A stretch of DNA of 64,000 bases. Source: Minisyncoccota bacterium. GTDB lineage: Bacteria; Patescibacteriota; Minisyncoccia; Phycocordibacterales; JACRKE01. Made by a program: the position numbers and the translations under genes. The notes beneath the pieces are model-generated. The model was given only the letters and a program-made list of their open reading frames with translations, did not search any database and was not told where the DNA came from. This document shows, one piece after another, positions 19,206 through 35,059 of the stretch (the stretch's first letter is position 1; every line of letters starts with the position of its first letter). The stretch is taken from assembly GCA_041660505.1 (NCBI GenBank), contig JBAZWG010000001.1, positions 609,768-673,767 on the forward strand. The letters run 5' to 3'.

Positions 19206-21512
19206 CTATAATGAACCGCCGCCGGAATCTGACGTTGGGTCGAAGTATTCGTATTCGGCTGTGGCGGTGCTGGTGCCGACTGCATTGGCCATATAGCCAC
19301 GTACCCAATACTCCACATCTACCGGATGTGTGAAGTCTATATACTGCCAGTCATCGGCGGGGTCTCCCCATATTGGCTCGGTTGCAAGCGGGAGAAAGGT
19401 TGGTCCATTAGGCCCCTCTGTGCTGTATCTAAGTTCCGCATAAGTGAGAGGATTACTACCGATTTCTGGCGACGCGAAGAGTCTATCGCCACGATGCATA
19501 ATCCCGGCATCGTCTTCGTAAGAGAAATAATAAATATCTGTAGGGGCGTTAGGGACTACACCGGGTATCATTGCGATCACATTGGACGCGGTACTCGTCC
19601 CGGCGTTGTTTATTGCGAAAACTTTGAACGAATATTGCGTGCCGTTCGCGAGTTCGGTTATGAGATAACCTGTTGTGGTGCCTGTGCCGTCAACAAGAAT
19701 GTCATCATTGCTCGTGAACCCATCTGTGCTCTTGTGAATTTCGTAATCCGTTAATTCTCCGCCGTCATCCGCTGGTGCTGACCAAGCGAGCGAAGCGCTT
19801 GCGTTGCCCCGTGTGGCGGTTAAACTTTGCGGCGCGCTTGGTGCGACTATCGGGCTTACCGGTGTTGCTGTCACAATGTCTGACGCCGAGCTCGTGCCCG
19901 CGCGATTGATAGCAAAAATTTTGAAATAATAAGCCGTACTATTTGTGAGCCCGGCGACGAGCGTACTTGTGGCGATACTGACACCGTCATCAAGTGTTGT
20001 ATCCGTTTCAGAAAAATTATCGGTGCTCTCGTGAATTTCGTAATCGGTAATCGGAGCATCGGTAACTTCAGTCGGAGAGAGCCATGAGAGTAATACAGTC
20101 GCATCACCGGCAACAGCGAGCGGCGAGAGCGGCGCGCTAGACGTTGCATATGTCGGATCCGGTTCGGGTTCGGGCTCTGATGGCGGAGGTTTAACCTCCG
20201 CAATAGGGACGCCGGTACCGCCACCGCCGAAACCGGGCGAGAGAATTTGAAATACGCTCGTTATCGAGGCTGTCGGTTTTGGCAATTCTGCTTTCGGCGC
20301 CTCTGTCTTCACGGCAGGAGGTGCCGGTTCCACCGGCTTTTTCGGCATCGCACGTAACTCTGCGTGCTGTTCGCGCAGACCGATCGCGCGGTCTTGCAGA
20401 CTTTGTATCTGGCGCACGAGAGCGTCGGTTTCTGCTTGAGTCAGTGTGCGCGGCGGTTGCGGGGCGGGTGCTACTTGGACGATAGCTTTCGGCGTCAGAC
20501 CCGTCACGAACATCGTTTCTTTATGCGGTATAGGAATAATGATAGGCGTCGGTTTGCCGAGTATCGCGATAGTGAAGGCGGAAGCAACTGTGTAGAGCGC
20601 CCCGCCAACCCCCTTTGCTATTGCCGATGTTGTGGTTATTACTGCATTCGCGCTGTCACCGACGGTCTTCATGCCTAAGTTGGCCAGAGGGTCCGCGACA
20701 ACGAAAACGAGGCTCTGGACTTTATGCACGAGCGAGAGTTCCGGTGGGTCGATGCACTTTTTGTCTGGTGCTTGCACATCGTTCGGCTTTAATTTATCCA
20801 AGGACTTCTGAATGGCCGAGACGATTTCTGCTCCGCGATATTTGAGATAGACAGTGGCGAAGCCGTGGCCGGTCTCGTCCCTCTCAAACTCGAGATCGAT
20901 GTGCGTGTTGGGCGCCATTATAGTACGTGAAAGGGTAGAATTGACGATGCCTGCGATGACTTTATCGGTGTCGGAGGTGAGCCATTGCCCTCCGCCGGCT
21001 ACGCGGGATGACGGCGTGGCAACACTGTACACGCCAATGGACTGTGGCGGAACATCCGGCCCCTCCCCAGCCCTCCCCGAAGGAGAGGGAGATGATGCCG
21101 TAACTTTGTCATAAAAGCTGTTGGCATAAAAATTGCCCTGTGAATGGGCAACGAGGAGGAGCTTTTGCGTTGTTACTTTCTGACTCGCGGAGTTCAGTAT
21201 CTCCGTCAAGTCATAATCGCTCACGACCTCGTCGTCAAAGTACTTCTGATTTGCGGCATCCAAAATATCCTTAACCCCGGCAAGGTTGGTGTCGTTGAGG
21301 AGATATTGATAATCCAGACGTTCGTTTTTATAAGAAAGACCTAGAGTATCCCTAAGTGCTTTCATGTTTACTCTAGCTCCAGCGTCGTCTGTAAAAACAC
21401 CGTTGACGGTTGCTACAGTGTATCCATCTTTCGTGCATTGGGTAACTACCGAGGCAAGAACAAAATTTGGTAGTAAACAGATACCTAAGATTAAGCCTGT
21501 TTTAACATTCAT
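19206..21512 (-). CDS. secreted alpha/beta-hydrolase (lipase/esterase-like) with two C-terminal fibronectin type III domains
   Basis: Signal peptide MNVKTGLILGICLL; nucleophile elbow LLLVAHSQGNF (GxSxG type); two Fn3-like repeats (LxWSAPADDGGELTDYEIH...YSFKVFAIN); start set at the internal Met with the signal peptide. Confidence 0.6.
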   Translation of the reverse strand: MNVKTGLILGICLLPNFVLASVVTQCTKDGYTVATVNGVFTDDAGARVNMKALRDTLGLSYKNERLDYQYLLNDTNLAGVKDILDAANQKYFDDEVVSDYDLTEILNSASQKVTTQKLLLVAHSQGNFYANSFYDKVTASSPSPSGRAGEGPDVPPQSIGVYSVATPSSRVAGGGQWLTSDTDKVIAGIVNSTLSRTIMAPNTHIDLEFERDETGHGFATVYLKYRGAEIVSAIQKSLDKLKPNDVQAPDKKCIDPPELSLVHKVQSLVFVVADPLANLGMKTVGDSANAVITTTSAIAKGVGGALYTVASAFTIAILGKPTPIIIPIPHKETMFVTGLTPKAIVQVAPAPQPPRTLTQAETDALVRQIQSLQDRAIGLREQHAELRAMPKKPVEPAPPAVKTEAPKAELPKPTASITSVFQILSPGFGGGGTGVPIAEVKPPPSEPEPEPDPTYATSSAPLSPLAVAGDATVLLSWLSPTEVTDAPITDYEIHESTDNFSETDTTLDDGVSIATSTLVAGLTNSTAYYFKIFAINRAGTSSASDIVTATPVSPIVAPSAPQSLTATRGNASASLAWSAPADDGGELTDYEIHKSTDGFTSNDDILVDGTGTTTGYLITELANGTQYSFKVFAINNAGTSTASNVIAMIPGVVPNAPTDIYYFSYEDDAGIMHRGDRLFASPEIGSNPLTYAELRYSTEGPNGPTFLPLATEPIWGDPADDWQYIDFTHPVDVEYWVRGYMANAVGTSTATAEYEYFDPTSDSGGGSL
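21061..21092. repeat. GC-rich palindromic element copy, in-frame in the minus-strand hydrolase gene
   Basis: CCCTCCCCAGCCCTCCCCGAAGGAGAGGGA; its reverse-complement reading frame gives SPSPSGRAGEGP in the protein. Confidence 0.75.
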
Positions 21513-21513
21513 T

Positions 21514-22122
21514 TTAGTTAGGCAGTGTGGTTGGTTGTATGTCACACCCACCGTCAGATGGCCCCCCGCTTTGTAAATTATTGTTGATAAGGTCTTTAAG
21601 ATATTTAGTTCTTGCTGTTGAGTTAAGCTGAAGTTTTTCAACAAAGCTTCTGTATTTATTTACATCAGCAATAAATTTTGTCATATCGGATCGCGAACTA
21701 AGACTCCACAAACATACATCTGCGTGGCCTTCTAAATCCTCAATTGTCGCCGAAACTGTTCCTCCGTTCACAAGCTGTAGCGTCATTTCGGTTTGTAATG
21801 CTAAGGCATACTGAAGAAGTGGAGAACGTATCTTGGCACTATCGGGATAGGTTTGGAATATTGCCAGTTCGACGTCGTCGCGGATGCCGTTTTTGTTGGC
21901 GTCTACGCCAGCAATAGTTGCATCCGGCGAGGCGGGGACAGGCGGCAAATTTTTACCCATTACATCATTCAGTGTAAGCTTGGTCGCATGGATGCGCGCA
22001 ACTTGCACGGCTGTCTGCTTGGCTCGTTCGAGCACGTACATTCTGTAGAAGACCAACACCGCGAACAGCACAAAAATAACCGTCCCCGCTCGGGAAAGGT
22101 AAGTTGTAAGAGATTTTTTCAT
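21514..22122 (-). CDS. membrane-anchored hypothetical protein
   Basis: N-terminal TM helix; ORF abuts the downstream hydrolase gene (operon). Confidence 0.5.
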   Translation of the reverse strand: MKKSLTTYLSRAGTVIFVLFAVLVFYRMYVLERAKQTAVQVARIHATKLTLNDVMGKNLPPVPASPDATIAGVDANKNGIRDDVELAIFQTYPDSAKIRSPLLQYALALQTEMTLQLVNGGTVSATIEDLEGHADVCLWSLSSRSDMTKFIADVNKYRSFVEKLQLNSTARTKYLKDLINNNLQSGGPSDGGCDIQPTTLPN

Positions 22123-22606: not shown

Positions 22607-22854
22607 CCCCAGAATTTATTTATATATTAAGTACAAGTAATAATAAGAATAATATGTCAGAAGAAAATATGCCGGAGCCGGAGTTGGAGATAGTGCCGGA
22701 GCCCGAAAAAACACAAGTCCCTGCGCCCGTTATCTTCCCGGACATAGTGCCCAAAACAGACGAGCCGGAAAAGCCGACGATACACTAAATATTCTTAGCC
22801 TCGTTGTCCACTGTTTTATTTTGCGCGGCATACTCGGCGTTATATAATACAGGG

Positions 22855-23214
22855 ATGGAAGGCTCACCGAAGCTCTATAAAGAGTCGCGCCCGTGGGGGA
22901 ACTTCGAACGCTTCACCCTGAACGAACCGACGACAGTCAAGATAATCACGGTTAACCCCGATGAGGCCTTTAGTTTGCAAACACATGATCATCGCAACGA
23001 ATTCTGGCGCGTGCTTAATGGCTCCGGCTTGGTGCAGATAGGGGAGGCGGAGCATGAGGCGCAGGAAGGCGATTCTTTCCTCATCAAGGCGCACGAGAAG
23101 CACCGCGCAACGGCCGGTACGAACGGGCTGGTTATGCTGGAAATTGCCTTCGGCGAGTTCGATGAAAAAGATCTTACTCGAATAGAAGATCGTTATGGGC
23201 GCGCTCAACAATAA
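22855..23214 (+). CDS. cupin-fold protein, mannose-6-phosphate isomerase type II (ManC C-terminal) like
   Basis: WGNFERF...VKIITVNPDEAFSLQTHDHRNEFWRVLNGSG...EGDSFLI...HEKHR cupin motifs with His ligands. Confidence 0.62.
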   Translation: MEGSPKLYKESRPWGNFERFTLNEPTTVKIITVNPDEAFSLQTHDHRNEFWRVLNGSGLVQIGEAEHEAQEGDSFLIKAHEKHRATAGTNGLVMLEIAFGEFDEKDLTRIEDRYGRAQQ

Positions 23215-24316
23215 TCCTAATAATTTTTGGCCGGTCGTTTTATTCTTCCTCGCGATATTCGCCTTAGCCTTTTTCTATCATTGGCTCACACGCAAGAAAA
23301 TTTCGGCGCCGGTCATACTCCTTCGCTTGCCCGAGAATCCCATCCTCTCGCCCGTCAAAGAACATTGGTGGGAGTCAGAGGCGGTCTTCAATCCCGCAGC
23401 GTTCGTGGATGACGGCAAAGTACACCTCTTCTATCGCGCCTTGGGCCGTGATGGCATTTCGCGCATTGGCTACGCCTGGAGTACGGACGGCTTGCACTTC
23501 GAGCGTTTGTCATACCCCGTATTCTCTGCCGAGAACGTGCAGGAAGTGAAGAGCCACTTCCCCTACACCTCGCCGGTGCGCTTGTCCTATGACACGGTCA
23601 ACAATCCATCCGGTGGCGGCTGGGGAGGCTTAGAAGACCCGCGGGCTATAAAGATTGACGGCCGTATTTACCTTACCTTCAACGCTTTCAACGGCTGGGA
23701 GTCGATGCGCGTCGGCTTGACCTCGATAAGCGAAGAAGATTTTAAAAATAAGAATTGGAACTGGCGCAAGTTCGTCTACCTTACCGACGAACGCAACAAG
23801 AATTGGATGTTCTTCCCCGATAAAATTAACGACAAGTTCGCGCTCCTCCACAGTATCTACAGCGAGAATGGCGAACGCGTCCAGATTAAATATCTTGATA
23901 GCTTGCATATTCACGGCCCGCTCCAGAATCTCAAGTCCGCCGACCCGCACAGGCTTAAGGACCAGAAGATAGCCTGGCACTATCGCATCCGCAGTGCCGG
24001 CACGCCGCCGTTGCGCACCAAGTACGGCTGGCTGGTCTTGTACCACGCAATGGATCCGAATGAGCCGAGCCGGTACAAAGTCGGCGCCCTGCTCCTCGAC
24101 CTCGCTTCGCCCACCAAGGTCATCGCGCGGAGCGACCATCCTATCCTCGAGCCGGACATGTGGTACGAGAACGATTGGAAGCCGGGGATAGTCTACGCCT
24201 CCGGTGCTGTAGTTCTCGGTGAAGATCTCATGGTCTACTACGGCGGCGGTGACAAATATGTCGCCGGCGCAAAAGTGAATTTGGAGTTGCTTATCAAGAG
24301 CCTAATGCGACAGTAG
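23195..24316 (+). CDS. GH130-family glycoside phosphorylase-like protein (DUF377), N-terminal TM anchor
   Basis: NPA..YRALG.DG.SRIGYA.S.DG motif and C-terminal VYYGGGD; five-bladed propeller family signature. Confidence 0.68.
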   Translation: MGALNNNPNNFWPVVLFFLAIFALAFFYHWLTRKKISAPVILLRLPENPILSPVKEHWWESEAVFNPAAFVDDGKVHLFYRALGRDGISRIGYAWSTDGLHFERLSYPVFSAENVQEVKSHFPYTSPVRLSYDTVNNPSGGGWGGLEDPRAIKIDGRIYLTFNAFNGWESMRVGLTSISEEDFKNKNWNWRKFVYLTDERNKNWMFFPDKINDKFALLHSIYSENGERVQIKYLDSLHIHGPLQNLKSADPHRLKDQKIAWHYRIRSAGTPPLRTKYGWLVLYHAMDPNEPSRYKVGALLLDLASPTKVIARSDHPILEPDMWYENDWKPGIVYASGAVVLGEDLMVYYGGGDKYVAGAKVNLELLIKSLMRQ

Positions 24317-24380
24317 TTCTCGCCTAGGCCGGTCTGTCATACGGCGGCCTTTTTTGCTATACTGTCGTCGTCAGAATTAT

Positions 24381-25154
24381 ATGAAAAAGTGGGAAATAGT
24401 CGTGGAAAAGTTTCTTGATGAATGGCGGGACAAGCCGGAGGTTTTAGGCGCTATTGTCGGAGGCAGTCATGCGGTGGGGAATGAGACGGACCTTTCGGAC
24501 ATTGATCTTCAGGTGGTTTTGAAAAACGATATTCCGTGGAGAGACCGAGGGCTTACATGCATCGATGGAATTATTATTGAATATTTCCTTGTACCTATAG
24601 GAAACTATAAAATCTATTCCGAGCAGGGAATCAACAGAGACCAGATCAAAGTAGATGCCAGAATATTTTCGACCGGAAAGGTTGTATTAGACAAAGACGG
24701 CAGTATGGCAGAACTGGTCAAAGAAGCTTATGAGAAATTGAAGAAAGAATTTCCCGTCTATCCGGACGAGGCAAAAGCCTTGATGCAAAAACACCTTTGG
24801 GACACGCATGATCATTTGGAAGAATACACTAAATATCCCTCACCGATGTTCGGTATCCTATACGGCATTTTACTGAATGATATTCTAGAATTCTACGCGC
24901 GAGTTACTCGCACGGAAAGATTGCCTTTAGAAAGAGCCCATAAATTGATTACAAATGAAGTCTATAGAGAAAGATATGGATTCCCAAGAGTATCAGACAA
25001 AAAATTCGAGACACTTCTACTGTCGGCGATAGAAAAGCAAGATTTCGCAAATATTGATGCGCTCTATACCTATGCCCAAGAACTCGGTGGGGGCTTCGAC
25101 CAGTGTAATTGGTATTTAAGACGGAAATCACTGGTGCAAGTGGTGAATAAATAA
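24381..25154 (+). CDS. Pol-beta-type nucleotidyltransferase domain protein (ANT/KNTase-like fold)
   Basis: LGAIVGGSHAVGNETDLSDIDLQVV is the GS...D.D nucleotidyltransferase motif. Confidence 0.58.
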   Translation: MKKWEIVVEKFLDEWRDKPEVLGAIVGGSHAVGNETDLSDIDLQVVLKNDIPWRDRGLTCIDGIIIEYFLVPIGNYKIYSEQGINRDQIKVDARIFSTGKVVLDKDGSMAELVKEAYEKLKKEFPVYPDEAKALMQKHLWDTHDHLEEYTKYPSPMFGILYGILLNDILEFYARVTRTERLPLERAHKLITNEVYRERYGFPRVSDKKFETLLLSAIEKQDFANIDALYTYAQELGGGFDQCNWYLRRKSLVQVVNK

Positions 25155-25176: not shown

Positions 25177-26112
25177 TTGCTAGTATTATGTCTGATATTC
25201 ATGTCTTGGTTACTCATTGCCCTTATTGGGCCTATACTCTACGCTGTCGCTAATCATATCGATAAGCATGTTATCGAGCGATACTTGAAGGGAGGGGTCG
25301 CAGGCGCACTTATAATATTTTCATCCCTCTTCAGTATCGTGGCGTTGCCGGTGCTTACTTACTTCGAGCCGTCGGTACTTGATGTTACTCTTTTGCAGGG
25401 GGTTTACCTTGCTCTGAACGGCATGCTCGTCGTGTTTGCCTTCCTCGCTTATTTCTACGCGCTCACTTATGATGAAGCATCATATGTTGTCCCATGGTAT
25501 CAGACCATACCGATCTTCGGATTCATTCTCGGCTATTTTATATTAGGCGAGAAAATTTCCCAGACTCAAGCTCTGGCGTCCGCATTCATTCTCGCCGGTG
25601 CAATAATTCTATCGCTCGACTTCGGCGGCAAAAAGATGCACTTTAAACGCGAGGTTGCTTTCCTTATGCTCGGCGCCTCGCTACTTTATGCAATCAATGG
25701 AGTTGTATTTAAAGTTATTGCAACCGACGCCGGTTTCTGGGTCAGCGTATTCTGGGGGCTCGTGGGCAAAGTTATCCTTGGCTTCGCCTTCCTCGCCTTC
25801 ATTCCCTCATATCGCAATCAATATTTATACTTGTTACGACATAGCGGTTTGACAGTACTGGGCTTTAATTCTTTAAGCGAATTTCTCTCGATGATTGCAG
25901 AAGCGGCCATGCAATATGTGACCCTGCTTGTACCCGTCGGGATAGCGCTTCTTGCCAACTCGTTCCAGCCATTCTTCGTTCTTATTATCGGTAGTCTCAT
26001 CGCATTCTTCTGGCCGAGCAAAGAGGCCGAATCGCTCCGAGCCGGCAAAATGACCCAAAAAGTTGTAGGCATAGCCATTATGGTCCTGGGGAGCTATCTG
26101 ATCGGGGTATAA
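25177..26112 (+). CDS. DMT/EamA-like multi-TM transporter
   Basis: About 10 predicted TM helices in a two-fold repeat architecture. Confidence 0.5.
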   Translation: MLVLCLIFMSWLLIALIGPILYAVANHIDKHVIERYLKGGVAGALIIFSSLFSIVALPVLTYFEPSVLDVTLLQGVYLALNGMLVVFAFLAYFYALTYDEASYVVPWYQTIPIFGFILGYFILGEKISQTQALASAFILAGAIILSLDFGGKKMHFKREVAFLMLGASLLYAINGVVFKVIATDAGFWVSVFWGLVGKVILGFAFLAFIPSYRNQYLYLLRHSGLTVLGFNSLSEFLSMIAEAAMQYVTLLVPVGIALLANSFQPFFVLIIGSLIAFFWPSKEAESLRAGKMTQKVVGIAIMVLGSYLIGV

Positions 26113-26160
26113 AAGATTTTATTTGCGATGATTTTTAAATCCTAGTATACTGTCCTCACT

Positions 26161-26550
26161 ATGCATTTTGGCGAACATCTGATGATTGACGGTTATGGTG
26201 GCGACACGGAACTTTTGAATTCCGAGGCACTCGTCCGTAAAATTCTGACAGAATTACCAGTGCAGTTAGGGATGCAAACTTTGGCGGCACCCGTAATAAT
26301 TTCTGCTCCCGACAACGATAAAAAAGACCCCGGTGGCTGGAGCGGCTTCGTCGTTATTGCCGAGAGTCATGTGAGTATTCATACTTTTCCCAAGCGCGGT
26401 TTCGTCAGTATCGATGTGTACACCTGTAGGAATGGACTCGATATTGAAACTATCAAAGCCTATTTCACCGGCTCATTCGCGCTCGCCGAACTCGAGACCA
26501 ACTTCGTCTTACGCGGTAAGAAGTATCCGCAACAAAACATTCATGCATGA
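26161..26550 (+). CDS. speH: S-adenosylmethionine decarboxylase proenzyme (small pyruvoyl type)
   Basis: Self-cleavage motif AESHVSIHTFPK...SIDVYTCRNG matches ESHxxIHTWPE...FTCG; 129 aa. Confidence 0.78.
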   Translation: MHFGEHLMIDGYGGDTELLNSEALVRKILTELPVQLGMQTLAAPVIISAPDNDKKDPGGWSGFVVIAESHVSIHTFPKRGFVSIDVYTCRNGLDIETIKAYFTGSFALAELETNFVLRGKKYPQQNIHA

Positions 26551-27479
26551 CAGAGCTTCCAGCCTTTCCCGAATTTAAGCAGATAGAGCTGGCAGACCGA
26601 TCGTCGGTAGAAAAACTGACAGAAAAATTTCCGCCATATTCAGACTTTCATTTCTCCAGTTTGTATTCTTGGGACATCAACAAAAAAATGGGATTATCCG
26701 TGCTGAACGGCAATCTGGTGGTTTTGTTCAATGATTATATTTCCGGAAGTTTTTTCCTGACATTTATTGGAGATTCAAAGATTTCTGAAACAGCCTCCAT
26801 ACTGCTAGATTTTTCAAAACAGAATGGTTATGAAAGCTCCCTAAAACTTATTCCCGAAGAAATGGCAAAAGTATTGTCGGAAACAGGATTCTCTGTAGAG
26901 CCCGATGCCGGAGCTCATGATTACATCTATTCGATTGAACGTCTCGCAAACATGGAAGAATGGAGTAAGAGCACACAAAAGAAGCAGATCAGAAAATTTA
27001 TGGATACGAACCCTCAGTACTCCGCTCGGATATTACCCACTAAGGAATTAGACAAACGAGAATACCTCGAACTTTTTAAACAATGGGCAACCAACAAAAA
27101 TCTCCTTGATCACACGGAGTTGAACGAGTATAAAGCCTTTAGCCGGCTTCTGGCCGAAAACAATGGCGATGTTGAAATGTTGTCTATATATAGCGACGAG
27201 TCGTGTAAAAAAATGATCGGATTTACATCGTTTGAAACGATATCCGATGACTACGCCATAGCGCATTTTTCTAAAGCCGATATTAAGCATCACGCCGCAA
27301 TTTACTGCGTTTTGATATGGGAAGAGGCGAAATATCTTCAGAAAAAGGGTATAAAGCACTACAATTGGGAACAGGACCTGGATATACCTGGACTACGCAC
27401 TTTCAAAATGTCCTACAAGCCGGAATTTTTCTTAAAGCAGTACACGGTGAGTTTACCTGTGTTGTCGTCACAATCGTAG
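26547..27479 (+). CDS. hypothetical 310-aa protein translationally coupled to speH; AT-rich; not spermidine synthase
   Basis: ATGA overlap with the speH stop; no SpeE GGGDGG motif. Confidence 0.55.
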   Translation: MTELPAFPEFKQIELADRSSVEKLTEKFPPYSDFHFSSLYSWDINKKMGLSVLNGNLVVLFNDYISGSFFLTFIGDSKISETASILLDFSKQNGYESSLKLIPEEMAKVLSETGFSVEPDAGAHDYIYSIERLANMEEWSKSTQKKQIRKFMDTNPQYSARILPTKELDKREYLELFKQWATNKNLLDHTELNEYKAFSRLLAENNGDVEMLSIYSDESCKKMIGFTSFETISDDYAIAHFSKADIKHHAAIYCVLIWEEAKYLQKKGIKHYNWEQDLDIPGLRTFKMSYKPEFFLKQYTVSLPVLSSQS

Positions 27480-27504
27480 CCAACCTCGTATTAAATAGCC
27501 CCAA

Positions 27505-28617
27505 ATGATAATCATTGACCTGAAATTTCTTGTTAGAAAACGAGCGAATTTATTTTTTCTTATCGACAATCTCTCTTTTCCTATTGATTCAATGCACCGA
27601 GATTACAACCGTGAGTGGCTGGAGCTTTTCGGACAACTGTCGGATAGCGAGAATAATGCGCTCGAAAAATACAGGTTGTTTAAAAAGTCTATCTGGGACA
27701 GAGGGGGAGGCAAACTACTTACTCGTTTTGAATCTGCCTTTTATCAATTTTCAGAATTAGACCTGAGAGAAGAAAAATTATTACTAAATATTCTTACCGA
27801 AGAAGAGTCTGGCGAATTAGATAAAATCTTTAGCTATTTTCAAGGCAGGTTTGAACTAATGTGGGAAAATTATTGTCGGATTCTCTCGAATAATCTTATC
27901 TTTCTTGAAAACGATTTTGCTTCCGTTCAACAAGTGTTTAGTGAGACACTCTCTGTAATTGGCGGGTTGTATGGGGTTAATAATTTTAACGATCGAATCG
28001 AAGTCTTTCTTATGATGCGACCGGCCACCGGGTTTTCCGGAGGGAGAATGATTAGCCGAAAGCCCCCTATAGTAATGATCGAGAGCGGGATTTCTAAACC
28101 ACAAGATCTTGACCAAATAAATCATCTGCGGCTATTACTTTTTCATGAGCTCACTCACGCCTGTTTTGAAAACGAACGTTTTTTAAAATTTCTCGGTGAA
28201 TATATCGAAAAGAAAACTCCACTCACTCACTTTCTTGAGAAATACCCCTCAACAAAGACTCCAGCTTTGGCCACCCGCCGAGCAATGCGAGAAATGATTA
28301 TTAACTCCATTGAATATAGTACGTACGTTCGAGGTCGGCTTGAACAAGGTTGTGAGATAAATTCCAATAATGGGGAAACTATTCTGAACGAAATTCGAAA
28401 CAAAAAATCTTTTAAACTCGCGAAAGGCACCCAAGAGAAACGCTCTATTATTTTGACCAGCGGAGAGGATACTTACCGGTATGTCGCGTGGAAGCTAGAA
28501 GGAATTGTGCGACCATATCTTGATAATAAAAAGCGCATAGATGATGAATTCTTAGACGGTGTTTATGATGTCTTAAAAGCATTTCCGGATAACCTTCTTG
28601 ATGATTTGAAATTGTGA
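27505..28617 (+). CDS. hypothetical protein with HExxH motif (LLFHELTHACF), possible metallopeptidase
   Basis: Single HELTH motif; AT-rich; converges on the rSAM gene end. Confidence 0.5.
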   Translation: MIIIDLKFLVRKRANLFFLIDNLSFPIDSMHRDYNREWLELFGQLSDSENNALEKYRLFKKSIWDRGGGKLLTRFESAFYQFSELDLREEKLLLNILTEEESGELDKIFSYFQGRFELMWENYCRILSNNLIFLENDFASVQQVFSETLSVIGGLYGVNNFNDRIEVFLMMRPATGFSGGRMISRKPPIVMIESGISKPQDLDQINHLRLLLFHELTHACFENERFLKFLGEYIEKKTPLTHFLEKYPSTKTPALATRRAMREMIINSIEYSTYVRGRLEQGCEINSNNGETILNEIRNKKSFKLAKGTQEKRSIILTSGEDTYRYVAWKLEGIVRPYLDNKKRIDDEFLDGVYDVLKAFPDNLLDDLKL

Positions 28618-28674
28618 ACAAAAAGGCTGGCTCCCTAGAAACCCAGGAACCAGCCAAACTCCTCATCCTTTCTG

Positions 28675-29931
28675 TTAGTGATCAAGGATGTGTCTAAGGA
28701 GGTTCTTCGAAAATTCCCTGATTGCTTCGCATCGATAGCTCCTCTCTTTCCAGAAAGCTTCTGGTGAGACTTCGGCTTTATTGGCAGGGCAGTCTCCCTT
28801 ACAACCAAATTGAGCGAAGCAGTTCTGGCAGTCGGGAATACTCCTGACATTGAATTGCCGGAGGTGTCTGTATCGGTCTGCATCGAACACGAAAGCCTGT
28901 TGTTTTGGATCGTACTGTCCGAAACAAAATAGCAAAGCAGCGTCGTTTGCGCCCACACCGGCCATTCTATGGCAGGAAACAACTCGGCCGTCATAGGTGA
29001 TTGTGAAGTTCTTGCCAGCGGCTCCACAAAAAGCGCTACCCGTTGTCCGCCACGCCTGTGCAAGCGATGTTCTTATGCTAACGTTCAACGTTTTGGCAAC
29101 TTCAGACGCCTCAGTGAATTTCCCTAAGAATAGGGAGTCCACTGGTGGTTGAGCAAGCGGATTGACTTTCGCTCTCCCCATCGCGAAAAGTGGTTCGTAG
29201 GTTTGGACGCAACCAGGGAATCGTTCCCCGAAAAATCTCACCATTTCAGTCAGACGGTGAACGCTTGCTGCGGAAATGGTGGAACGGAACCTTAGTTTGT
29301 GCGGTGCAATCTGATAGATTTCCGTTGCCGCATCGAACACGCGGTCGAAACTCTTGCCCCGTTGCGCATCGTGGATATCCTTGGGCCCATCCACGGATAG
29401 TAGTATGTTGTCCATGTTCTCGGCGAGCCACCTGGCCTTTTGAGACGACATACAACCGTTGGTAGTGATTCCTGCCGAGCTCTCGAGACCCTGTTCTGAC
29501 GCTTGCGCGTGGAGGTACTGTACCGCTCCGACCAAGGTAGTCCAAGGTAGTGTCGGTTCACCGCCGAACATCCATGCACCGACCTTGCGCTTTCCTGAGT
29601 CTCTCGCAGATTTTATGAGATGGTCGACAGTAGCTCGGACAACCTCAGTCGGCATCGTTATGGTTTCTGTCGGCCGCGGGACGTAACCTCCAAAGCAGTA
29701 GATGCACCCAAGCTTGCACTGGTTAGTGAGCATCAAGGTTGCACCCGTAAAGAGGTAGTTCGGTTCTTCCGCTACCTCTTTTTGTATCGTCGAAGTCGGG
29801 GCGGTTACAAAATCTGGGATTGTTTCTGCAACATTCGCTTCGACCCGATACACCTTTCGCATTGTGGGAACGTAAATAATGACGCTATCTCCGTCTTGAA
29901 TCTTGAAGAGTCGGTGTTGAACAAGTTCCAT
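28675..29931 (-). CDS. radical SAM enzyme with C-terminal SPASM domain (RiPP peptide maturase-like)
   Basis: CxxxCxxC at LTNQCKLGCIYCFG; SPASM CX2CX5CX3C at CQNCFAQFGCKGDC plus flanking Cys; about 65-aa N-terminal extension; RBS ACGGAGG 6 nt before the ATG. Confidence 0.85.
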   Translation of the reverse strand: MELVQHRLFKIQDGDSVIIYVPTMRKVYRVEANVAETIPDFVTAPTSTIQKEVAEEPNYLFTGATLMLTNQCKLGCIYCFGGYVPRPTETITMPTEVVRATVDHLIKSARDSGKRKVGAWMFGGEPTLPWTTLVGAVQYLHAQASEQGLESSAGITTNGCMSSQKARWLAENMDNILLSVDGPKDIHDAQRGKSFDRVFDAATEIYQIAPHKLRFRSTISAASVHRLTEMVRFFGERFPGCVQTYEPLFAMGRAKVNPLAQPPVDSLFLGKFTEASEVAKTLNVSIRTSLAQAWRTTGSAFCGAAGKNFTITYDGRVVSCHRMAGVGANDAALLFCFGQYDPKQQAFVFDADRYRHLRQFNVRSIPDCQNCFAQFGCKGDCPANKAEVSPEAFWKERSYRCEAIREFSKNLLRHILDH

Positions 29932-29951
29932 GGATAACCTCCGTTATTATG

Positions 29952-29988
29952 GATCGAGGGTGGAAGCTATACGCTTCCACCCTCGATC
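29952..29988 (-). promoter_or_regulatory. perfect 16-bp stem-loop (GATCGAGGGTGGAAGC-TATA-CGCTTCCACCCTCGATC) between precursor ORF and maturase
   Basis: No U-run on the transcribed strand, so more likely an attenuator or processing/stability hairpin than a full terminator. Confidence 0.6.
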
Positions 29989-30014
29989 TTCTTCGAGTCA
30001 ACGACAGTTAGTTG

Positions 30015-30161
30015 TTACTCGCCGCAGCTGTCTCCATCTCCCCAGCAACCGTCTTGGTCCGAGTCGCATGCACTGCAACTTCGTGACGTGTCGGATGGAA
30101 GCGATGCGCTTGCGCAGGCAAGCCCTTCCAGCTGCTCCAGGGTCAAAGTCGGCTCTCTCAT
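30015..30161 (-). CDS. unannotated 48-aa Cys/Asp-rich RiPP precursor peptide candidate (ranthipeptide/SCIFF-like)
   Basis: Minus strand reads CGAAAGGAGGTGCCTATG...TAA. It translates to MREPTLTLEQLEGLACASASLPSDTSRSCSACDSDQDGCWGDGDSCGE. RBS AAGGAGG lies 5 nt upstream. Five Cys with nearby Asp/Ser/Thr at the C-terminus, helical acidic leader. Below the 60-aa ORF-track cut-off. Confidence 0.6.
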   Translation of the reverse strand: MREPTLTLEQLEGLACASASLPSDTSRSCSACDSDQDGCWGDGDSCGE

Positions 30162-30200
30162 AGGCACCTCCTTTCGTTGTCGAAGATCATTGTCAAGCTG

Positions 30201-30419: not shown

Positions 30420-31373
30420 ATGCCTAGTTGTATCTTCGGTATTATATTCATTTTATTCGACAGTCGTTCGACAAGATTTTCAGGTGAGCGACACGACTCC
30501 CGCAACCGAATAATTACATATATTCCCATGCAATCAGATCAAAATCAATATTGGTCAATGACAGAAGGTGTCTTTAACTGTCTCATTGACACCGAGCGAA
30601 CCGAAGCCTTTCAAAAAGCTATACGAAATACGGTAAAAAGGGGTGATATTGTTGTCGATCTCGGGTCTGGCTCCGGGGTCATGGCTATGTTCGCCGCCGA
30701 CGCAGGTGCGGCAAAGGTATACGCCGTTGAAATAGATTTGCGCAATATAAAAACGCTCCGAGATACGTTTGCAAAAAATGGATATGCAGACGTGATTACA
30801 GTTATCGAGGGGGATGCCACAAGTGTTGTGTTGCCAGAAAAAGTTGATGTGATTATCGCAGAGATGGTTGCGACTGGCCTGATTGAAGAACTACAAATTC
30901 CAGCGATGAATAATGCGCTCATGTATAAAAAGGAGAGAACACGCGTTGTTCTAAGCCGAATTGATAACTATATTGATCTCGTTTTTAATAATCCTGTATT
31001 TTATAATCACACGTTCAATATCTTCCGTTACGAATATCCGGACATCGAGCAGCTACGATCAAATAGTTTTTCTGACAGGATTATATATTCTTCTATAGAC
31101 TTCAACCATGTATGCAGTGAGAGGAATGTGGATGCAACATACGAAGTCTCGATTACTAACGACGGGGTGATTAATGCGCTCAGAATAAGCACCGACACTT
31201 TTTTTGCTGACAATTCAACACTTGGTCCTACCTATGCCTACGCATATCCGTTAATTCTCCCCATCCCCGAATCCAAGGTTAAAAAAGGAGATATTTTTTC
31301 GGTAAAAGTGTCCTACGAGCTCTGCGGAGGTTTCGATGGGTTCTCATACTCGGTAACTAAAAAAAATGTTTAG
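30420..31373 (+). CDS. PRMT-like class I SAM-dependent methyltransferase
   Basis: DTERTEAFQKAI...DIVVDLGSGSGVMAMFAADAGAAKVYAVE (motif I and post-I) and VDVIIAEMV match the protein arginine methyltransferase family pattern; alternative start at 30528; stop overlaps the HK start. Confidence 0.6.
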   Translation: MPSCIFGIIFILFDSRSTRFSGERHDSRNRIITYIPMQSDQNQYWSMTEGVFNCLIDTERTEAFQKAIRNTVKRGDIVVDLGSGSGVMAMFAADAGAAKVYAVEIDLRNIKTLRDTFAKNGYADVITVIEGDATSVVLPEKVDVIIAEMVATGLIEELQIPAMNNALMYKKERTRVVLSRIDNYIDLVFNNPVFYNHTFNIFRYEYPDIEQLRSNSFSDRIIYSSIDFNHVCSERNVDATYEVSITNDGVINALRISTDTFFADNSTLGPTYAYAYPLILPIPESKVKKGDIFSVKVSYELCGGFDGFSYSVTKKNV

Positions 31374-33075
31374 CAACTACTATTGCCCGGGAAATCTCTC
31401 CGTGCTCGGGGCCTTTGATTTCAGTTATGCCCCCACGCTCATTTTTTATGCTTACATACCAATAATTCTTGTCTCGATATTTTTCGGATTATTGCTTATT
31501 TTCAGAGATAAGTTTTCTATTCAGGGAAAGCTTATCTTTCTGCTTTCACTCTTCTTTTCGTTTTGGAATCTTAATGTTATTGCCGAGTGGATAACCGTCC
31601 CCGTCAACCTAAATCATTTTTTTTGGCAACTAACCATGCTGTTTGAGATGCCGATTCCGCTACTCGCGATATACCTCACTCTTGTTTTTATCTACAAAAA
31701 GGATATTTCGAGCAAGTTAAAAATATTACTGACTATATTTTTCCTGCCGGTCCCACTGCTTCTGGCGACCGTCTATAATATCGGCGTATTTGATGTGCAA
31801 AATTGTCAGCCAGCAGTCGGTTGGTTAACGTATTACGTCTATGCGATCGAGATTTTTTCCATTCTATGGATTGTTATAGCCGCGTATAGAAAATACCAGA
31901 TCGAATCAAGCCCCTCCGAAAAAAAACAAATTCTTCTGATGGTTTCTGGTATATCACTATTTCTCCTTACCTTTTCTTTGTCGAATATTCTCGGCGAGTG
32001 GACTCAATTTTATCAAATCAACCTTATCGGTCCTATTGGTATGGTGGTGTTTCTGGCGCTCATGACTTACCTTATCGTCAAGTTCAAGACCTTCAATATC
32101 AAGCTTATTGGTACACAGGCTTTGGTGTGGGCGCTTATTATACTTATCGGGTCGGAGTTTTTCTTCATCCAAACAAACGTCAATAGAATTCTCACTGCCG
32201 TTACCCTTGTAATATCGGCTTGGATGGGTCTCATAATTGTGAGAAGCGTAAAGAAGGAAATTGAGGCTCGTGAGATTATCGAAGGTATGGCGAAGAAACT
32301 TGAGGGGGTTAACACCGAGCTCGAGGGTGCCAATGCCAAGCTCAAGGTACTTGACCAACAGAAGTCGGAGTTTGTCTCTATTGCTTCGCATCAGTTGCGG
32401 TCGCCGCTCACAGTCATTAAGGGCTATTTATCCATGATGATCGAGGGCGAGCCGGAGTTGGCCGACCTTAAGGCGGGGACTATCACGCCGAAGGGGGTGG
32501 AGGTCATGAACACGATGTTCCAATCGACCAACCGCTTGGCGCATATTATTGAAGACTTCTTGAACGTCTCGCGCATCGAGCAGGGCAAGATGAAATACGA
32601 GATGAGCGACTTCGACATCCGCCAGATGGCGCGGGAAGTGGTGGGTGAATTCCAAGCCGAGGTGGGCGAGAGGAAACTGACGCTTATCTGCACCGACAAG
32701 TCGCCAAACGCGAGCTATATGGTCTACGCCGACGCGGGCAAGCTCCGCCAAGTCATCGGCAATATTATTGACAACTCTATCAAGTACACGCCGCAGGGCG
32801 GGATCACTGTCTATCTTGAACGTCTGGCGGATAGTACTAGACTTTCGGTGAAGGACACCGGCATCGGCATCTCGGCCGAGAACCTTAAGAATTTGTTCCA
32901 GAAGTTCTCTCGCGCATCGAACGGCGGTAAGGTCAACGTGACAGGATCCGGCCTCGGCCTCTTCGTCGCTGTCGAAATTATGAAGGCGCATAAAGGCAAG
33001 CTGTGGGCAGAGTCGGATGGAGAAGGCAAGGGCTCAACTTTCGTGATAGAACTTCCAATTAAAAAACGGAATTAA
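31366..33075 (+). CDS. sensor histidine kinase with about 8-TM N-terminal membrane sensor domain; no response regulator adjacent
   Basis: H-box SIASHQLRSPLTVIKGY; HATPase_c N/G boxes (IIDNSIKYT, GSGLGLFVAVEIM); start overlaps the MTase stop. Confidence 0.85.
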   Translation: MFSNYYCPGNLSVLGAFDFSYAPTLIFYAYIPIILVSIFFGLLLIFRDKFSIQGKLIFLLSLFFSFWNLNVIAEWITVPVNLNHFFWQLTMLFEMPIPLLAIYLTLVFIYKKDISSKLKILLTIFFLPVPLLLATVYNIGVFDVQNCQPAVGWLTYYVYAIEIFSILWIVIAAYRKYQIESSPSEKKQILLMVSGISLFLLTFSLSNILGEWTQFYQINLIGPIGMVVFLALMTYLIVKFKTFNIKLIGTQALVWALIILIGSEFFFIQTNVNRILTAVTLVISAWMGLIIVRSVKKEIEAREIIEGMAKKLEGVNTELEGANAKLKVLDQQKSEFVSIASHQLRSPLTVIKGYLSMMIEGEPELADLKAGTITPKGVEVMNTMFQSTNRLAHIIEDFLNVSRIEQGKMKYEMSDFDIRQMAREVVGEFQAEVGERKLTLICTDKSPNASYMVYADAGKLRQVIGNIIDNSIKYTPQGGITVYLERLADSTRLSVKDTGIGISAENLKNLFQKFSRASNGGKVNVTGSGLGLFVAVEIMKAHKGKLWAESDGEGKGSTFVIELPIKKRN

Positions 33076-33135: not shown

Positions 33136-35052
33136 ATGTATATCATCAAGCGCAGCACGCACAATCCGCTCATTGCACCATTGAATGACAAGCAGTGGGA
33201 GTCGCGCGCGACATTCAACCCTTGCCCCGTCCGGCAAGGCAAGACGACGCACATGCTCTATCGCGCCTTGAGCCGGCCGGATGCCTTGCGCGAGCCCGAA
33301 GGCTTATCAACGATCGGCAAGGCAATCACAATGGACGGTGAACACTTCCAGGCGCGCAGGGCGTTCATCGTGCCGGAGCAGCCGTGGGAGAAGTATGGCT
33401 GTGAAGACCCGCGCGTTACATTCTTCGAGGGGAATTATGTGACGTTCTATACTGCTCTGGGTGGGATGCCCTTTGGCCCCGGCAATATCAAGGTGGCAGT
33501 GGCGCTGTCTAAAGATATGGAGCGCATCGACGAGAAGCATCTGGTCACACCCTTTAATGCCAAGGCGATGGTGCTCTTCCCCGAGCGAGTCGGCGGCAAG
33601 GTTACGGCAATATTCAGCGCGCACACCGATGAGCCACCGGTCAAGACTGTAATCGTCCAGGCCGACAAGCTCGAAGACTTTTGGGATTTGAAATTTTGGG
33701 AAAAGTGGCACGCGGAAATTGACGAGCACATCGTTAATCCTTTGCGCTTCAGCCACGACCATATCGAGGTTGGGGCGCCGCCATTGCGTACCAAAGACGG
33801 CTGGCTCTTGTTCTATTCTTATATCCAGAATTATTTCGGCGGAGGGGAGCGCGTCTTCGGCATCGAGGCATTACTCCTCGACTTCGATGACCCGCGCCAG
33901 ATAGTCGGCCGGACGAAGGGGCCGATCATGGTGCCGGAAGAAACTTACGAGAAGTACGGCATGGTGCCGAACATCGTCTTCCCCACGGGCGCGCTCCTGA
34001 ACACGAACGGCCGCGTGGATATTTATTACGGTGCGGCGGATACTGTCTGTGCGCGAGCCTCGTTAAGTTTACAAGATTTACTCAGCGCTATGGTGCCGGA
34101 ACGGCGCGCCCAACTCGCCGTGCGCGCGAAGGAGAATCCGATTCTTAAACCTGCTGAGGGCCACTCGTGGGAAAGCAAAGCGGTCTTCAACCCCGGGGCT
34201 ATCGAGATAGACGACACTATCTATTTGCTTTACCGCGCGATGGGTAACGATAATAATTCTGTTCTCGGCTATGCATCGACCAAAAATGGCGTGAAGATAA
34301 CAGAGCGTCTGGATCAGCCAGCCTATGTCCCGCGTGAAGACTTCGAGAAGAAAAGGGGTGGCAATACCTCGGGCTGTGAGGACCCGCGCCTGACCAGAAT
34401 AGACAATACAATTTACTTGGCTTACACGGCGTTCAACGGCGTCGACCCATGGCACGCGGCACTCTCCTCGATATCCGTAAAAGATTTCTTGGCCAAGCGC
34501 TGGGATATGTGGGAGAAGCCTCAACGTGTTACTCCGCCCCAGATACAGGATAAAGACGCCTGCCTTCTGCCAGAGAAAGTTGCTGATCAATACATGATCT
34601 TCCATCGCATCGATCCGATGATTTGCGCCGACTTTGTTGACTCTCTCGACTTCGCTAAGACTCCGCTCACGCGTTGTATCGAGATAATGGGGCCGCGGCC
34701 GGGTATGTGGGATAGCGCTAAGATCGGTATCGCCGGCCCGCCTATAAAGACAGATGCCGGCTGGCTTTTGCTCTATCACGGCGTGTCCAAGACCTCTACA
34801 TACAGACTCGGTGCTGTACTATTGGACTTGAAGAATCCCTCGATAGTGCTCTCGCGCTCTGTGGACACTATCTTCGAACCGCTTGAGGAGTACGAGCGCG
34901 TCGGCCAAGTACGCAATGCTGTGTTCTCGTGCGGGGCGGTGTTGCGCGGCAAGACCATCTATGTGTATTATGGCGGGGCGGATACGGTCGTGGGCGTAGC
35001 GAAGATAGCACTCGACAAGTTGCTCAAAATCCTGGCGCCGAAGAATTTATAA
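33136..35052 (+). CDS. tandem-duplicated GH130-family (DUF377) glycoside phosphorylase-like protein
   Basis: Two copies of the NP...YRA.G.D..S..G.A.S.DG ... YYGGAD pattern in a 638-aa protein. Confidence 0.7.
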   Translation: MYIIKRSTHNPLIAPLNDKQWESRATFNPCPVRQGKTTHMLYRALSRPDALREPEGLSTIGKAITMDGEHFQARRAFIVPEQPWEKYGCEDPRVTFFEGNYVTFYTALGGMPFGPGNIKVAVALSKDMERIDEKHLVTPFNAKAMVLFPERVGGKVTAIFSAHTDEPPVKTVIVQADKLEDFWDLKFWEKWHAEIDEHIVNPLRFSHDHIEVGAPPLRTKDGWLLFYSYIQNYFGGGERVFGIEALLLDFDDPRQIVGRTKGPIMVPEETYEKYGMVPNIVFPTGALLNTNGRVDIYYGAADTVCARASLSLQDLLSAMVPERRAQLAVRAKENPILKPAEGHSWESKAVFNPGAIEIDDTIYLLYRAMGNDNNSVLGYASTKNGVKITERLDQPAYVPREDFEKKRGGNTSGCEDPRLTRIDNTIYLAYTAFNGVDPWHAALSSISVKDFLAKRWDMWEKPQRVTPPQIQDKDACLLPEKVADQYMIFHRIDPMICADFVDSLDFAKTPLTRCIEIMGPRPGMWDSAKIGIAGPPIKTDAGWLLLYHGVSKTSTYRLGAVLLDLKNPSIVLSRSVDTIFEPLEEYERVGQVRNAVFSCGAVLRGKTIYVYYGGADTVVGVAKIALDKLLKILAPKNL

Positions 35053-35059
35053 AACACAC

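Follow-up and report, generated by a model that had tools for sequence, protein, structure and literature searches.

The locus studied here raises the question of whether two neighbouring AT-rich genes, lying between a speH-like gene and the gene of a radical SAM (rSAM) maturase, belong together as one block, and what their products may do. The window (the whole 64-kb stretch of DNA that was analysed) is part of a Candidatus Paceibacterota (CPR) chromosome and contains housekeeping genes, including those for Mur ligases, SecY and Map and pyrimidine genes. The layout described in an earlier note on this DNA was borne out: the ATGA at 26547-26550 combines the stop codon of the speH-like gene and the start codon of the 310-aa ORF, the 370-aa product of the second AT-rich gene has an HExxH motif (HELTH, residues 214-218), and this second gene and the rSAM gene converge tail to tail with 57 bp between them. 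A hairpin was read by eye in this spacer (Table 1), and a terminator scan found a 6-pair core on the minus strand (28629-28643) with TTTTT after it, which is terminator-like for the rSAM gene, in promoter and terminator scans whose overall output was at chance level. The reading that we favour, with moderate confidence, is that two independent systems meet in the 2-kb "block". Module A (25177-27479) consists of an EamA transporter, a SpeH-like pyruvoyl decarboxylase and a free-standing DUF2156 protein, and module B (27505-30167) is a three-gene RiPP cassette made of the HExxH protein, the convergent rSAM/SPASM maturase and a 50-aa precursor.

Table 1. Coordinates of the features of modules A and B and of the genes beyond them.
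Feature	Coordinates	Strand	Details
Membrane protein of the EamA family (drug/metabolite transporter); opens module A	25177..26112	+	PF00892 3.7e-12
SpeH-like ORF	26161..26550	+	129 aa
DUF2156 ORF	26547..27479	+	310 aa
Putative HExxH...E zincin-like metalloenzyme, partner of the rSAM maturase (module B)	27505..28617	+	370 aa; no Pfam/NCBIfam model
Hairpin	28625..28655	.	9-of-10-bp, read by eye; within the HExxH/rSAM spacer
Radical SAM/SPASM peptide maturase	28675..29931	-	PF04055, PF13186, TIGR04085
Precursor peptide	30015..30167	-	50 aa; leader TLTLEQLEGLA; Cys/Asp-rich core ...CSACDSDQDGCWGDGDSCGE
PrmA/PRMT-like SAM methyltransferase	30420..31373	+	PF06325, PF05185; beyond the cassette, context only
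7TM histidine kinase	31366..33075	+	HisKA_7TM, HisKA, HATPase_c; synteny anchor beyond the apparent insertion

The single two-gene block of the earlier note did not hold up when homologous loci were compared, since an HExxH gene or its cognate rSAM gene lies beside a DUF2156 homologue in none of 80 loci, and the closest relative, L097, lacks the cassette. There, the speH-like gene (73% identity), the DUF2156 gene (59%) and the EamA gene are consecutive, and the 7TM histidine kinase gene comes directly after the DUF2156-EamA-118aa run. Because speH, DUF2156, EamA and HisK are contiguous in L097, the cassette looks inserted here between the DUF2156 gene and the methyltransferase and 7TM-kinase genes, and its presence could in principle also be ancestral, with loss in other lineages. 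In 51 of 76 loci the DUF2156 gene is followed, at a median gap of 1177 bp, by a homologue of the kinase gene, and homologues of the methyltransferase (52-54% identity) are found near the DUF2156 gene in four loci (L019, L024, L030 and L034), from all of which the cassette is absent. Much of this neighbourhood (the kinase and small ORFs) is plain synteny among related genomes, and a Pfam scan of the other recurrent neighbours of the DUF2156 gene (a 275-aa membrane protein, a 95-aa and a 136-aa protein) gave zero matches. The sole rSAM-like match near a DUF2156 gene, in L014, is weak (28% identity) and lies about 2.8 kb off.

Base composition had been the main reason to see the two genes as one AT-rich block, recently transferred horizontally and unrelated to the surrounding genes, and they do lie on the same strand with only 25 bp between them, 10-12 GC points under the window mean. 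The DUF2156 gene has 40.7% GC (GC3 46%) and the HExxH gene 38.7% (GC3 36.9%, the lowest of the window), against 50.3% for both the window and its median gene; the figure of 35-40% against a window above 50% that had been given earlier was thus right about the window and about both genes being low, and slightly too low for the DUF2156 gene. Low values occur elsewhere too (41.7% in an NTase gene at 24354-25154 and 41.5% in the methyltransferase gene). What argues against acquisition being read from AT-richness is that the same bias recurs wherever the families were compared: the DUF2156 gene is below the GC content of its own locus in 71 of 75 loci, and in each of the 6 other loci compared, the HExxH gene falls short of the GC content of its rSAM partner by about 3-15 points. 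Low GC is an intrinsic family trait of both genes and is silent on recent acquisition. Moreover, the DUF2156 gene sits inside a block that is syntenic with many Paceibacteria genomes, and the two genes are never together elsewhere among the 80 DUF2156 loci, and we consider a common transfer very improbable. The HExxH and DUF2156 proteins gave zero PHROG or PADLOC matches in a search for a phage or defence origin; the pVip matches to the rSAM protein are generic.

The 310-aa protein matched a single Pfam family, PF09924, with 75.3 bits (cut-off 27.5) over residues 32-301, and a comparison with the PDB found 2hqy at 3.4e-13. Its AF2 model (pLDDT 94.5) gave Foldseek TM scores of 0.80-0.84 to 2hqy, of 0.54-0.66 to MprF C-domains, FemX and Sbb17, and of 0.60-0.66 to A-PGS, L-PGS and MprF. 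In DUF2156/LPG_synthase_C enzymes, the acceptor arm of the tRNA is bound by a helix of positive charge, α(+), which lies between GNAT I and GNAT II (PMC7334510, PMC8913301), and a basic helix is found at residues 141-154 of this protein (KSTQKKQIRKFMDT), where the stretch K141-S-T-Q-K-K-Q-I-R-K-F carries five basic residues and the model places a helix at 143-154. The PF09924 score, the double GNAT fold and an α(+)-like helix, all features of DUF2156/LPG_synthase_C enzymes, are present, and from sequence and model together the protein is a free-standing DUF2156 tandem-GNAT protein and a putative aminoacyl-tRNA-dependent transferase. It shares PF09924, the tandem GNAT and the basic helix between the halves with the MprF C-domain and DUF2156 transferases (A-PGS, L-PGS, ErdS, ErgS; FemX, Sbb17/Sba18), and it is free-standing like fungal ErgS and PDB 2hqy (PMC8913301). 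Unlike MprF-type transferases, it has neither a membrane or flippase domain nor a fused aaRS: no transmembrane segment is present, and the Pfam domain and the model span the whole protein, so the N-terminal polytopic flippase domain of MprF is absent.

The position of this gene after the speH-like gene, with translational coupling, is the one feature that would fit a divergent spermidine synthase or aminopropyltransferase using the decarboxylated SAM made by SpeH. This identity was excluded by Pfam, fold and motif: PF09924 covers the protein at full length and SpeE families are unmatched, the model is a tandem GNAT close to 2hqy and not a Rossmann methyltransferase-like fold, and the GGG[DE]G motif is absent from this ORF and from every real ORF of the window, leaving a divergent SpeE practically no chance. 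The absence of SpeE motifs that had been remarked on earlier therefore stands, and the profile-HMM and structure searches that had been proposed against GNAT and aminopropyl-transferase folds led to a GNAT-type fold and not to a divergent SpeE.

No SpeE is found within the window. The product of the speH-like gene upstream matched PF02675 (9.6e-24) and scored 75.3 bits against the NCBIfam equivalog TIGR03330, marginally under the cut-off of 75.65. The AdoMet_dc domain, the ES self-processing site and the catalytic His and Cys are all present, and alignment to the T. maritima AdoMetDC 1tlu puts E68-S69, H74 and C89 at the S63/H68/C83 spacing (S+5, S+20; PMC10407285). By these sequence features it is a predicted SpeH/SpeD-like pyruvoyl-dependent decarboxylase with the class 1b AdoMetDC fold, for which AdoMet, Arg or Orn are candidate substrates (PMC10407285). 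Fold, self-cleavage site and His/Cys spacing are shared with class 1b AdoMetDC and its SpeDA/SpeDC offshoots, and the protein also resembles the "anomalous" SpeD without a SpeE partner in CPR bacteria (PMC10407285); CPR SpeD homologues without SpeE have been shown to decarboxylate Orn or Arg (PMC10407285), whereas an equivalog-level score combined with a SpeE partner would point to AdoMet as the substrate. What sets the SpeH-like protein apart from this group, besides its score just under the equivalog threshold, is that its gene clusters with the DUF2156 and EamA genes and not with speE, hss, speY or casdh.

This linkage is conserved. By tblastn and clustering over the 76-80 loci that hold a DUF2156 homologue, an EamA homologue adjoins the DUF2156 gene in 53 of 76 (median gap 35 bp; same strand in 51), and speH-like homologues (49-73% identity) share the operon in 19 of the 76 loci and in L097, with three different gene orders and with ORFs that overlap or nearly touch. 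In the papers retrieved by a literature search, we found no report of a DUF2156 protein combined with an EamA transporter and a pyruvoyl decarboxylase. We hypothesise that the decarboxylase would make a small amine, which is the favoured acceptor (a membrane lipid being the alternative), that the DUF2156 enzyme would move an amino acid from aminoacyl-tRNA onto this acceptor, and that the EamA protein would export or flip the aminoacylated product. Free-standing DUF2156 enzymes are active as aminoacyl-tRNA transferases, as ErgS is (PMC8913301), and Sbb17/Sba18, solved relatives that aminoacylate a small-molecule amine, are among the Foldseek matches of the 310-aa model. About three quarters of the DUF2156 loci lack speH, so the decarboxylase may not be what supplies the acceptor.

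The lipid alternative can be formulated as a split MprF-like system, in which a soluble synthase (DUF2156) would make an aminoacyl-lipid and EamA would flip it, the speH-like gene being an ordinary polyamine gene nearby. Characterised PF09924 enzymes mostly aminoacylate lipids, with the free-standing ErgS included (PMC7334510, PMC8913301). The fold matches to MprF C-domains reach TM 0.63-0.66, and EamA is the steady partner, against 19 loci with speH. The closest structure, 2hqy (TM 0.8), is nevertheless uncharacterised, so lipid specificity is not transferable from it to the 310-aa protein, and where speH is present it lies inside the operon, in three orders and with tight ORFs, which argues for selection on the linkage and not for a chance neighbour. 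EamA-family proteins, furthermore, are mostly exporters of small metabolites. We regard the split lipid system as possible though doubtful. In either case, the conserved operon of DUF2156, EamA and pyruvoyl decarboxylase genes points to a product of tRNA-dependent aminoacylation in episymbiotic bacteria, which depend on the remodelling of scavenged lipids and metabolites.

Module B has the make-up of an rSAM/SPASM RiPP cluster: an rSAM enzyme with CxxxCxxC and SPASM is encoded next to a small precursor whose leader is conserved and whose core contains Cys. In NCBIfam the rSAM protein comes closest to the thioether maturases PapB, nif11 and SCIFF, always under the cut-off (PapB 108.9 against 340; SCIFF 97.9 against 425), and it has no equivalog-level match to PapB or ScfB. 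It shares 47-70% identity with the rSAM proteins that accompany close homologues of the HExxH protein, and homologous small precursor ORFs are present in L005, L092 and L002, with C..DGCxGDxxSCxE invariant. Likeness to PapB-type ranthipeptide and SCIFF clusters lies in these best matches and in the spacing of the precursor Cys, 1-3 residues from Asp or Glu; the scores far under the cut-offs, the precursor family and the HExxH partner set module B apart from them. We propose that the rSAM enzyme would cross-link Cys to Asp or Glu in the precursor core.

The suggestion that the HExxH protein belongs to this RiPP system was supported. Of 11 independent contexts, the set that a word-indexed profile search with few distant members in its output made available, 8 show the tail-to-tail arrangement with an rSAM/SPASM gene (the window, L002, L005, L092, L088, L094, L095 and L098). 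All 8 have a small precursor-like ORF, either next to the rSAM gene or on the upstream side of the HExxH gene, and the identities of the rSAM and HExxH proteins covary across two clades. The three contexts in which the rSAM gene was unseen (L007, L089, L099) are on contigs of just 2-5.6 kb. The HExxH homologues are thus linked to RiPP clusters, and the family has long been associated with rSAM/SPASM enzymes and has diverged together with them. Its size is 276 clusters at 50% identity, and the close family is rare: of 5.8 billion proteins 9 belong to it, and a metagenome scan with it gave 1 locus, on the contig already known.

The 370-aa protein has zero Pfam and zero NCBIfam matches, no curated peptidase family among them, and a Foldseek search of its model against the PDB found no significant whole-chain match. 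All of 41 diverse family members have H218 and E263, 98% have H214 and E215, and nearly all have Y338; the motif lies on helix 202-221 and the distal Glu on helix 253-270. The family profile weakly matches Wss1 (E 0.029) and SprT, 2 of 10 distant members scanned with Pfam give sub-threshold SprT/M50 matches only, and in the NCBIfam scan of the 41 members two SprT models were hit, by one member each. The protein appears to have a zincin-like core, in which the two His and the distal Glu are conserved candidate metal ligands; HExxH on a helix and a downstream Glu as putative third ligand agree with a gluzincin (clan MA). In common with gluzincins (M1, Wss1/SprT) are HExxH on a helix that follows a three-stranded sheet in the model, the invariant E263 and the near-invariant Y338, whereas the Glu of M1 and thermolysin lies 18-19 residues past the motif, against 44 here, and the GxMEN motif of M1 is absent. 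Class III lanthipeptides have Zn-dependent M1-type leader peptidases, and the RiPP cassette contains no other protease. A role as the metallopeptidase that would remove the precursor leader is plausible but unproven.

The main alternative is that the protein is a tailoring oxygenase like those of the αKG-HExxH group (cf. ChlH, BpmH, PflC, PesO), which would hold Fe(II) through HExxH and a carboxylate and hydroxylate core Asp (or His) rather than cut the leader. Proteins with HExxH that are encoded beside rSAM genes or fused to rSAM enzymes, and were formerly annotated as peptidases, proved in earlier work to be αKG/Fe enzymes that β-hydroxylate Asp, His, Phe, Gln and Pro (PMC12636437, PMC13060819). 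The precursor cores are Asp-rich here and Asp/His-rich in the distant clade, and R115, at a conserved basic position (90% K/R), could bind αKG. Membership of the αKG-HExxH family (TIGR04267/IPR026337) was rejected by both the NCBIfam HMM and hhalign: at E<=1, 0 of 41 family members match TIGR04267, with the positive control PflC (its sequence taken from a paper's supplement) reaching 98.5 bits against a cut-off of 40, and an alignment of the family profile A3 with PflC covered 16 columns round the motif at a probability of 0.44%. Paceibacteria are mostly fermenters without a TCA cycle, to which a chemistry based on O2 and αKG would be less well suited. The resemblance to the β-hydroxylases (ChlB/ChlH, FxsB-type, BpmH, PflC, PesO) comprises HExxH, a probable zincin-reminiscent core, an rSAM/SPASM neighbour and a small precursor with an Asp- (and His-) rich core, and such enzymes are easily mistaken for peptidases; the 370-aa family differs in having no sequence or profile kinship with them and in its helical N-terminal domain of about 160 residues, which has its own conserved residues. 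We consider the oxygenase rather unlikely.

A more far-reaching reading joins the amine reading of module A to a new kind of enzyme in module B. In it, the SpeH-like/DUF2156/EamA pathway would make an amine, aminoacylate it from aminoacyl-tRNA and export the conjugate, and the HExxH family would form a RiPP enzyme class of its own that serves rSAM/SPASM maturases specifically, a combination that is unlikely to hold in full and that we advance tentatively. If true, this would mean biochemistry new to CPR bacteria in both modules. Module A would yield a tRNA-dependent small metabolite of a new class, or else modify a surface lipid, in organisms of minimal metabolism, and the chemistry or substrate handling of the HExxH family would differ from that of classical leader peptidases and of αKG-HExxH hydroxylases. 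This bears on a moment at which HExxH "peptidases" beside rSAM enzymes are being reassigned to oxygenase chemistry. For genome analysis at large, low GC in a single gene may be a family trait, and homologues need checking before horizontal transfer is inferred. The natural products of CPR bacteria are almost unexplored, and here a compact three-gene cassette recurs with an enzyme family that lies outside curated libraries.

The sequence features described for this locus in the earlier note are all present: a 310-aa open reading frame (ORF) whose start shares an ATGA with the stop of the speH-like gene, a 370-aa ORF with the HExxH motif HELTH at residues 214-218, the convergence of the latter on the rSAM gene, and low GC in both (40.7% in the 310-aa gene and 38.7% in the 370-aa gene, against 50.3% for the window), the 370-aa gene having the lowest GC3 of the window. 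The reading given to these features is supported in part: the HExxH protein is linked to the RiPP system, but neither a single acquired block nor the SpeE-type expectations are borne out.

Positions of the features discussed, in the window and in loci of other genomes (L-numbers) holding DUF2156 or HExxH homologues
Feature	Locus	Position	Strand	Remark
speH-like gene	window	26161-26550	+	
310-aa ORF	window	26547-27479	+	
370-aa ORF	window	27505-28617	+	
rSAM gene	window	28675-29931	-	converges on 370-aa ORF
MTase gene	window	30420-31373		
7TM histidine kinase gene	window	31366-33075		
High-GC stretch	window	5406-12124		
Mannoside-metabolism genes	window	22804-24316 and 33136-35806		flank the locus
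Predicted surface proteins	window	47950-54665 and 19206-21644		very large
Cell-wall-peptidase-like genes	window	38930-41746		three, consecutive
Duplicated start in rSAM ORF	L002	12379-12535	-	
Precursor	L002	8941-9177	+	
Small ORF	L088	2146-2334	+	distant cassette
Small ORF	L098	191-382	+	distant cassette
Small ORF	L095	2585-2767	-	distant cassette
Small ORF	L094	3601-3756	-	distant cassette
Second HExxH protein	L099	1034-1876		HEISH
208-aa protein	L007	3909-4535	-	
SET-domain protein	L039	1113-1664		one of 9 loci
Class II aminoacyl-tRNA synthetase	L097	734-2188		
CysRS	L040	8751-10127		one of 14 loci

The HExxH gene was examined in 11 independent contexts, and in eight of them (the window, L002, L005, L092, L088, L094, L095 and L098) an rSAM/SPASM gene converges on it. 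The stops of such pairs touch or overlap, the window pair being separated by a 57-bp spacer in which a hairpin resembles a minus-strand terminator. No rSAM neighbour was seen in the other three contexts (L007, L089 and L099), on contigs of only 2-5.6 kb, that of L099 being 2 kb long. Convergent contexts also hold a precursor-like ORF of 49-78 aa, upstream of the rSAM gene or of the HExxH gene. The precursors of the close clade have a common leader, TLT[LI]EELEALA, and a core with an invariant C..DGCxGDxxSCxE; in the distant clade, an Asp/His-rich core of the type HxDGPxYN..H was found in three of four loci (L088, L095 and L098), and the precursor-like ORF of L094 has an Asp/His-rich core of another kind. 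The rSAM and the HExxH proteins divide by identity into two matching clades, and the identities of the one rise and fall with those of the other, which indicates that their partnership is old. The L002 precursor is encoded upstream of the HExxH gene and on the opposite strand from the rSAM ORF, the first ~25 residues of which (KSKQDRNRETKMPSAIELKKLESLAMGE) nearly duplicate the precursor start; KSKQDRNRETKMPSAIELKKLESLAMGE looks like a leader remnant from a rearrangement that moved the precursor. The small ORFs of the distant cassettes, with their Asp/His-rich cores (..CHHDGPSYNNHSSNGHSK, ..CHSDGPDYNNKAGSDGHSK and ..THTDGPGYNDHSGDPDHNK), form a second family; the rSAM proteins of these cassettes (363-372 aa) are similar to anaerobic sulfatase maturases, and the N-terminal extension of ~60 residues seen in the window rSAM is missing from them.

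The 370-aa protein has no match in Pfam, NCBIfam, PHROG or PADLOC. Only 9 close homologues were found among 5.8 billion clustered proteins, and a profile search recovered 276 more distant representatives, ten of which gave no significant match when scanned against Pfam. Across 41 diverse family members H218 and E263 are invariant, H214, E215, G179, G180, W120, Y338 and D346 are near-invariant, and the position of R115 is basic in 90%; the AF2 model (pLDDT 89, pTM 0.82) has, in order, a helical N-terminal domain, a three-stranded sheet, the HExxH helix and a second helix with E263. HExxH proteins adjoining rSAM enzymes were recently shown to be Fe/αKG enzymes that β-hydroxylate residues of Asp, His, Gln, Phe and Pro, and one of them, PflC, is also hydrolytic (PMC12636437, PMC13060819). 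The 370-aa family is likewise an HExxH family beside rSAM, and oxygenase-like chemistry is a serious rival, even if we consider it rather improbable; the family differs from these hydroxylases in having no detectable profile homology to PflC. The PflC sequence, taken as positive control from the supplement of the source paper, scored 98.5 bits on TIGR04267, a profile that matched 0 of the 41 members at E<=1, and hhalign of the family against PflC aligned only 16 columns around the motif, at a probability of 0.4%, which places the 370-aa family outside the αKG-HExxH family. We favour, tentatively and at close to an even chance, the earlier suggestion of a putative leader peptidase, since the nearest structural relatives of the model appear to be true peptidases (with no significant whole-chain match by Foldseek against the PDB) and the cassette has no other protease gene. 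Two neighbours of HExxH homologues can be mentioned here: in L099 a shorter HExxH protein (280 aa) directly follows the HExxH gene as a tandem paralogue, and in L007 a protein with a faint Peptidase_MA_2 match converges with a close homologue (55% identity).

The 310-aa protein, where a SpeE-type enzyme had been expected, belongs to PF09924 (LPG_synthase_C, DUF2156; 75.3 bits against a Pfam cut-off of 27.5) and matches the uncharacterised Bacteroides protein 2hqy (3.4e-13). Its AF2 model, built from 26 homologues (pLDDT 94.5), superposes on 2hqy with a TM of 0.80-0.84 and on MprF C-terminal domains, FemX, Sbb17 and Sba18 with 0.54-0.66, the last two being aminoacyl-tRNA-dependent peptide synthases. 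A basic helix at residues 141-154 (KSTQKKQIRKF...) occupies the position of the tRNA-binding α(+) helix described for the DUF2156 family (PMC7334510, PMC8913301). Family, superpositions and helix together identify a predicted free-standing tandem-GNAT enzyme of the aminoacyl-tRNA transferase type, and an aminopropyltransferase is ruled out.

When the window proteins were mapped onto 80 genome loci with DUF2156 homologues and the neighbours clustered over 76 of these, an EamA transporter was found in 53 (median gap 35 bp, same strand in 51), the 7TM histidine kinase downstream in 51 (median gap 1177 bp), and a speH-like gene inside the operon in 19, in three orders: speH-DUF2156, speH-EamA-DUF2156 and DUF2156-speH. 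The SpeH-like protein falls marginally under the NCBIfam equivalog cut-off and has retained, at canonical spacing, the Ser of self-processing together with the catalytic His and Cys; no spermidine-synthase-like gene lies within the 64-kb window, and CPR SpeD homologues without SpeE have proved to be ornithine or arginine decarboxylases (PMC10407285). In our preferred reading, the SpeH-like decarboxylase would make an amine, the DUF2156 enzyme would aminoacylate it and EamA would export the product. The chief competing reading is lipid aminoacylation by a split system resembling MprF. Genes of protein-methyltransferase type are repeatedly found next to the DUF2156 gene, with a possible bearing on its product: a SET-domain protein in 9 loci, and a PrmA/PRMT-like MTase with 52-54% identity to that of the window in four (L019, L024, L030 and L034). 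Genes for aminoacyl-tRNA synthetases also occur near the operon: L097 has a class II enzyme of the Asp/Lys/Asn type two genes upstream, and 14 loci have a CysRS on the opposite strand. They may reflect nothing more than synteny, or may point to the amino-acid donor.

The HExxH and rSAM pair is absent from all 80 DUF2156 loci, and the closest relative, L097 (59% identity for DUF2156, 73% for speH), has the order speH-DUF2156-EamA-118aa-kinase and lacks HExxH, rSAM and MTase genes at this locus; on this comparison the cassette looks inserted between the DUF2156 gene and the MTase/kinase genes, which argues against a single acquired block. Nor is low GC confined to the 310-aa/370-aa pair, since the nearby NTase (41.7%) and MTase (41.5%) genes are almost as AT-rich. 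The HExxH gene lies ~3-15 GC points under its rSAM partner in 6 of 6 other loci, and the DUF2156 gene lies below the GC of its locus in 71 of 75 (median deficit 4.7 points), so AT-richness is intrinsic to both families and does not count as evidence of recent transfer. Composition is strongly heterogeneous along the window, from a stretch at 56-61% GC (GC3 up to 78%) in which the genes for OMP decarboxylase and dihydroorotate dehydrogenase lie to other genes near 40%, so that a GC deviation of one gene in this genome has to be checked against its family.

Mur ligase, pyrimidine, SecY, Map and GH130 genes mark the window as ordinary chromosome. The 370-aa protein is identical to one encoded on a 719-kb contig of a Candidatus Paceibacterota MAG, a phylum now named Minisyncoccota, in the CPR/Patescibacteria lineage. 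The flanking mannoside genes are cupin-type mannose-6-phosphate isomerase-like, GH130, double-GH130 (638 aa) and PMM/HAD phosphatase-like. The large predicted surface proteins are of a kind common in CPR episymbionts: a 1744-aa protein that combines Kelch repeats with a bacterial Ig-like domain, the LamG/ConA-like protein (494 aa) that comes after it, and an FN3 protein of 812 aa; the peptidase-like genes encode a VanY-type D-Ala-D-Ala carboxypeptidase and two M14 zinc carboxypeptidases. Two leads come out of this locus: a family of enzymes partnering rSAM maturases, which no curated library covers, and the conserved association of decarboxylase, DUF2156 and EamA genes in an operon of CPR bacteria.
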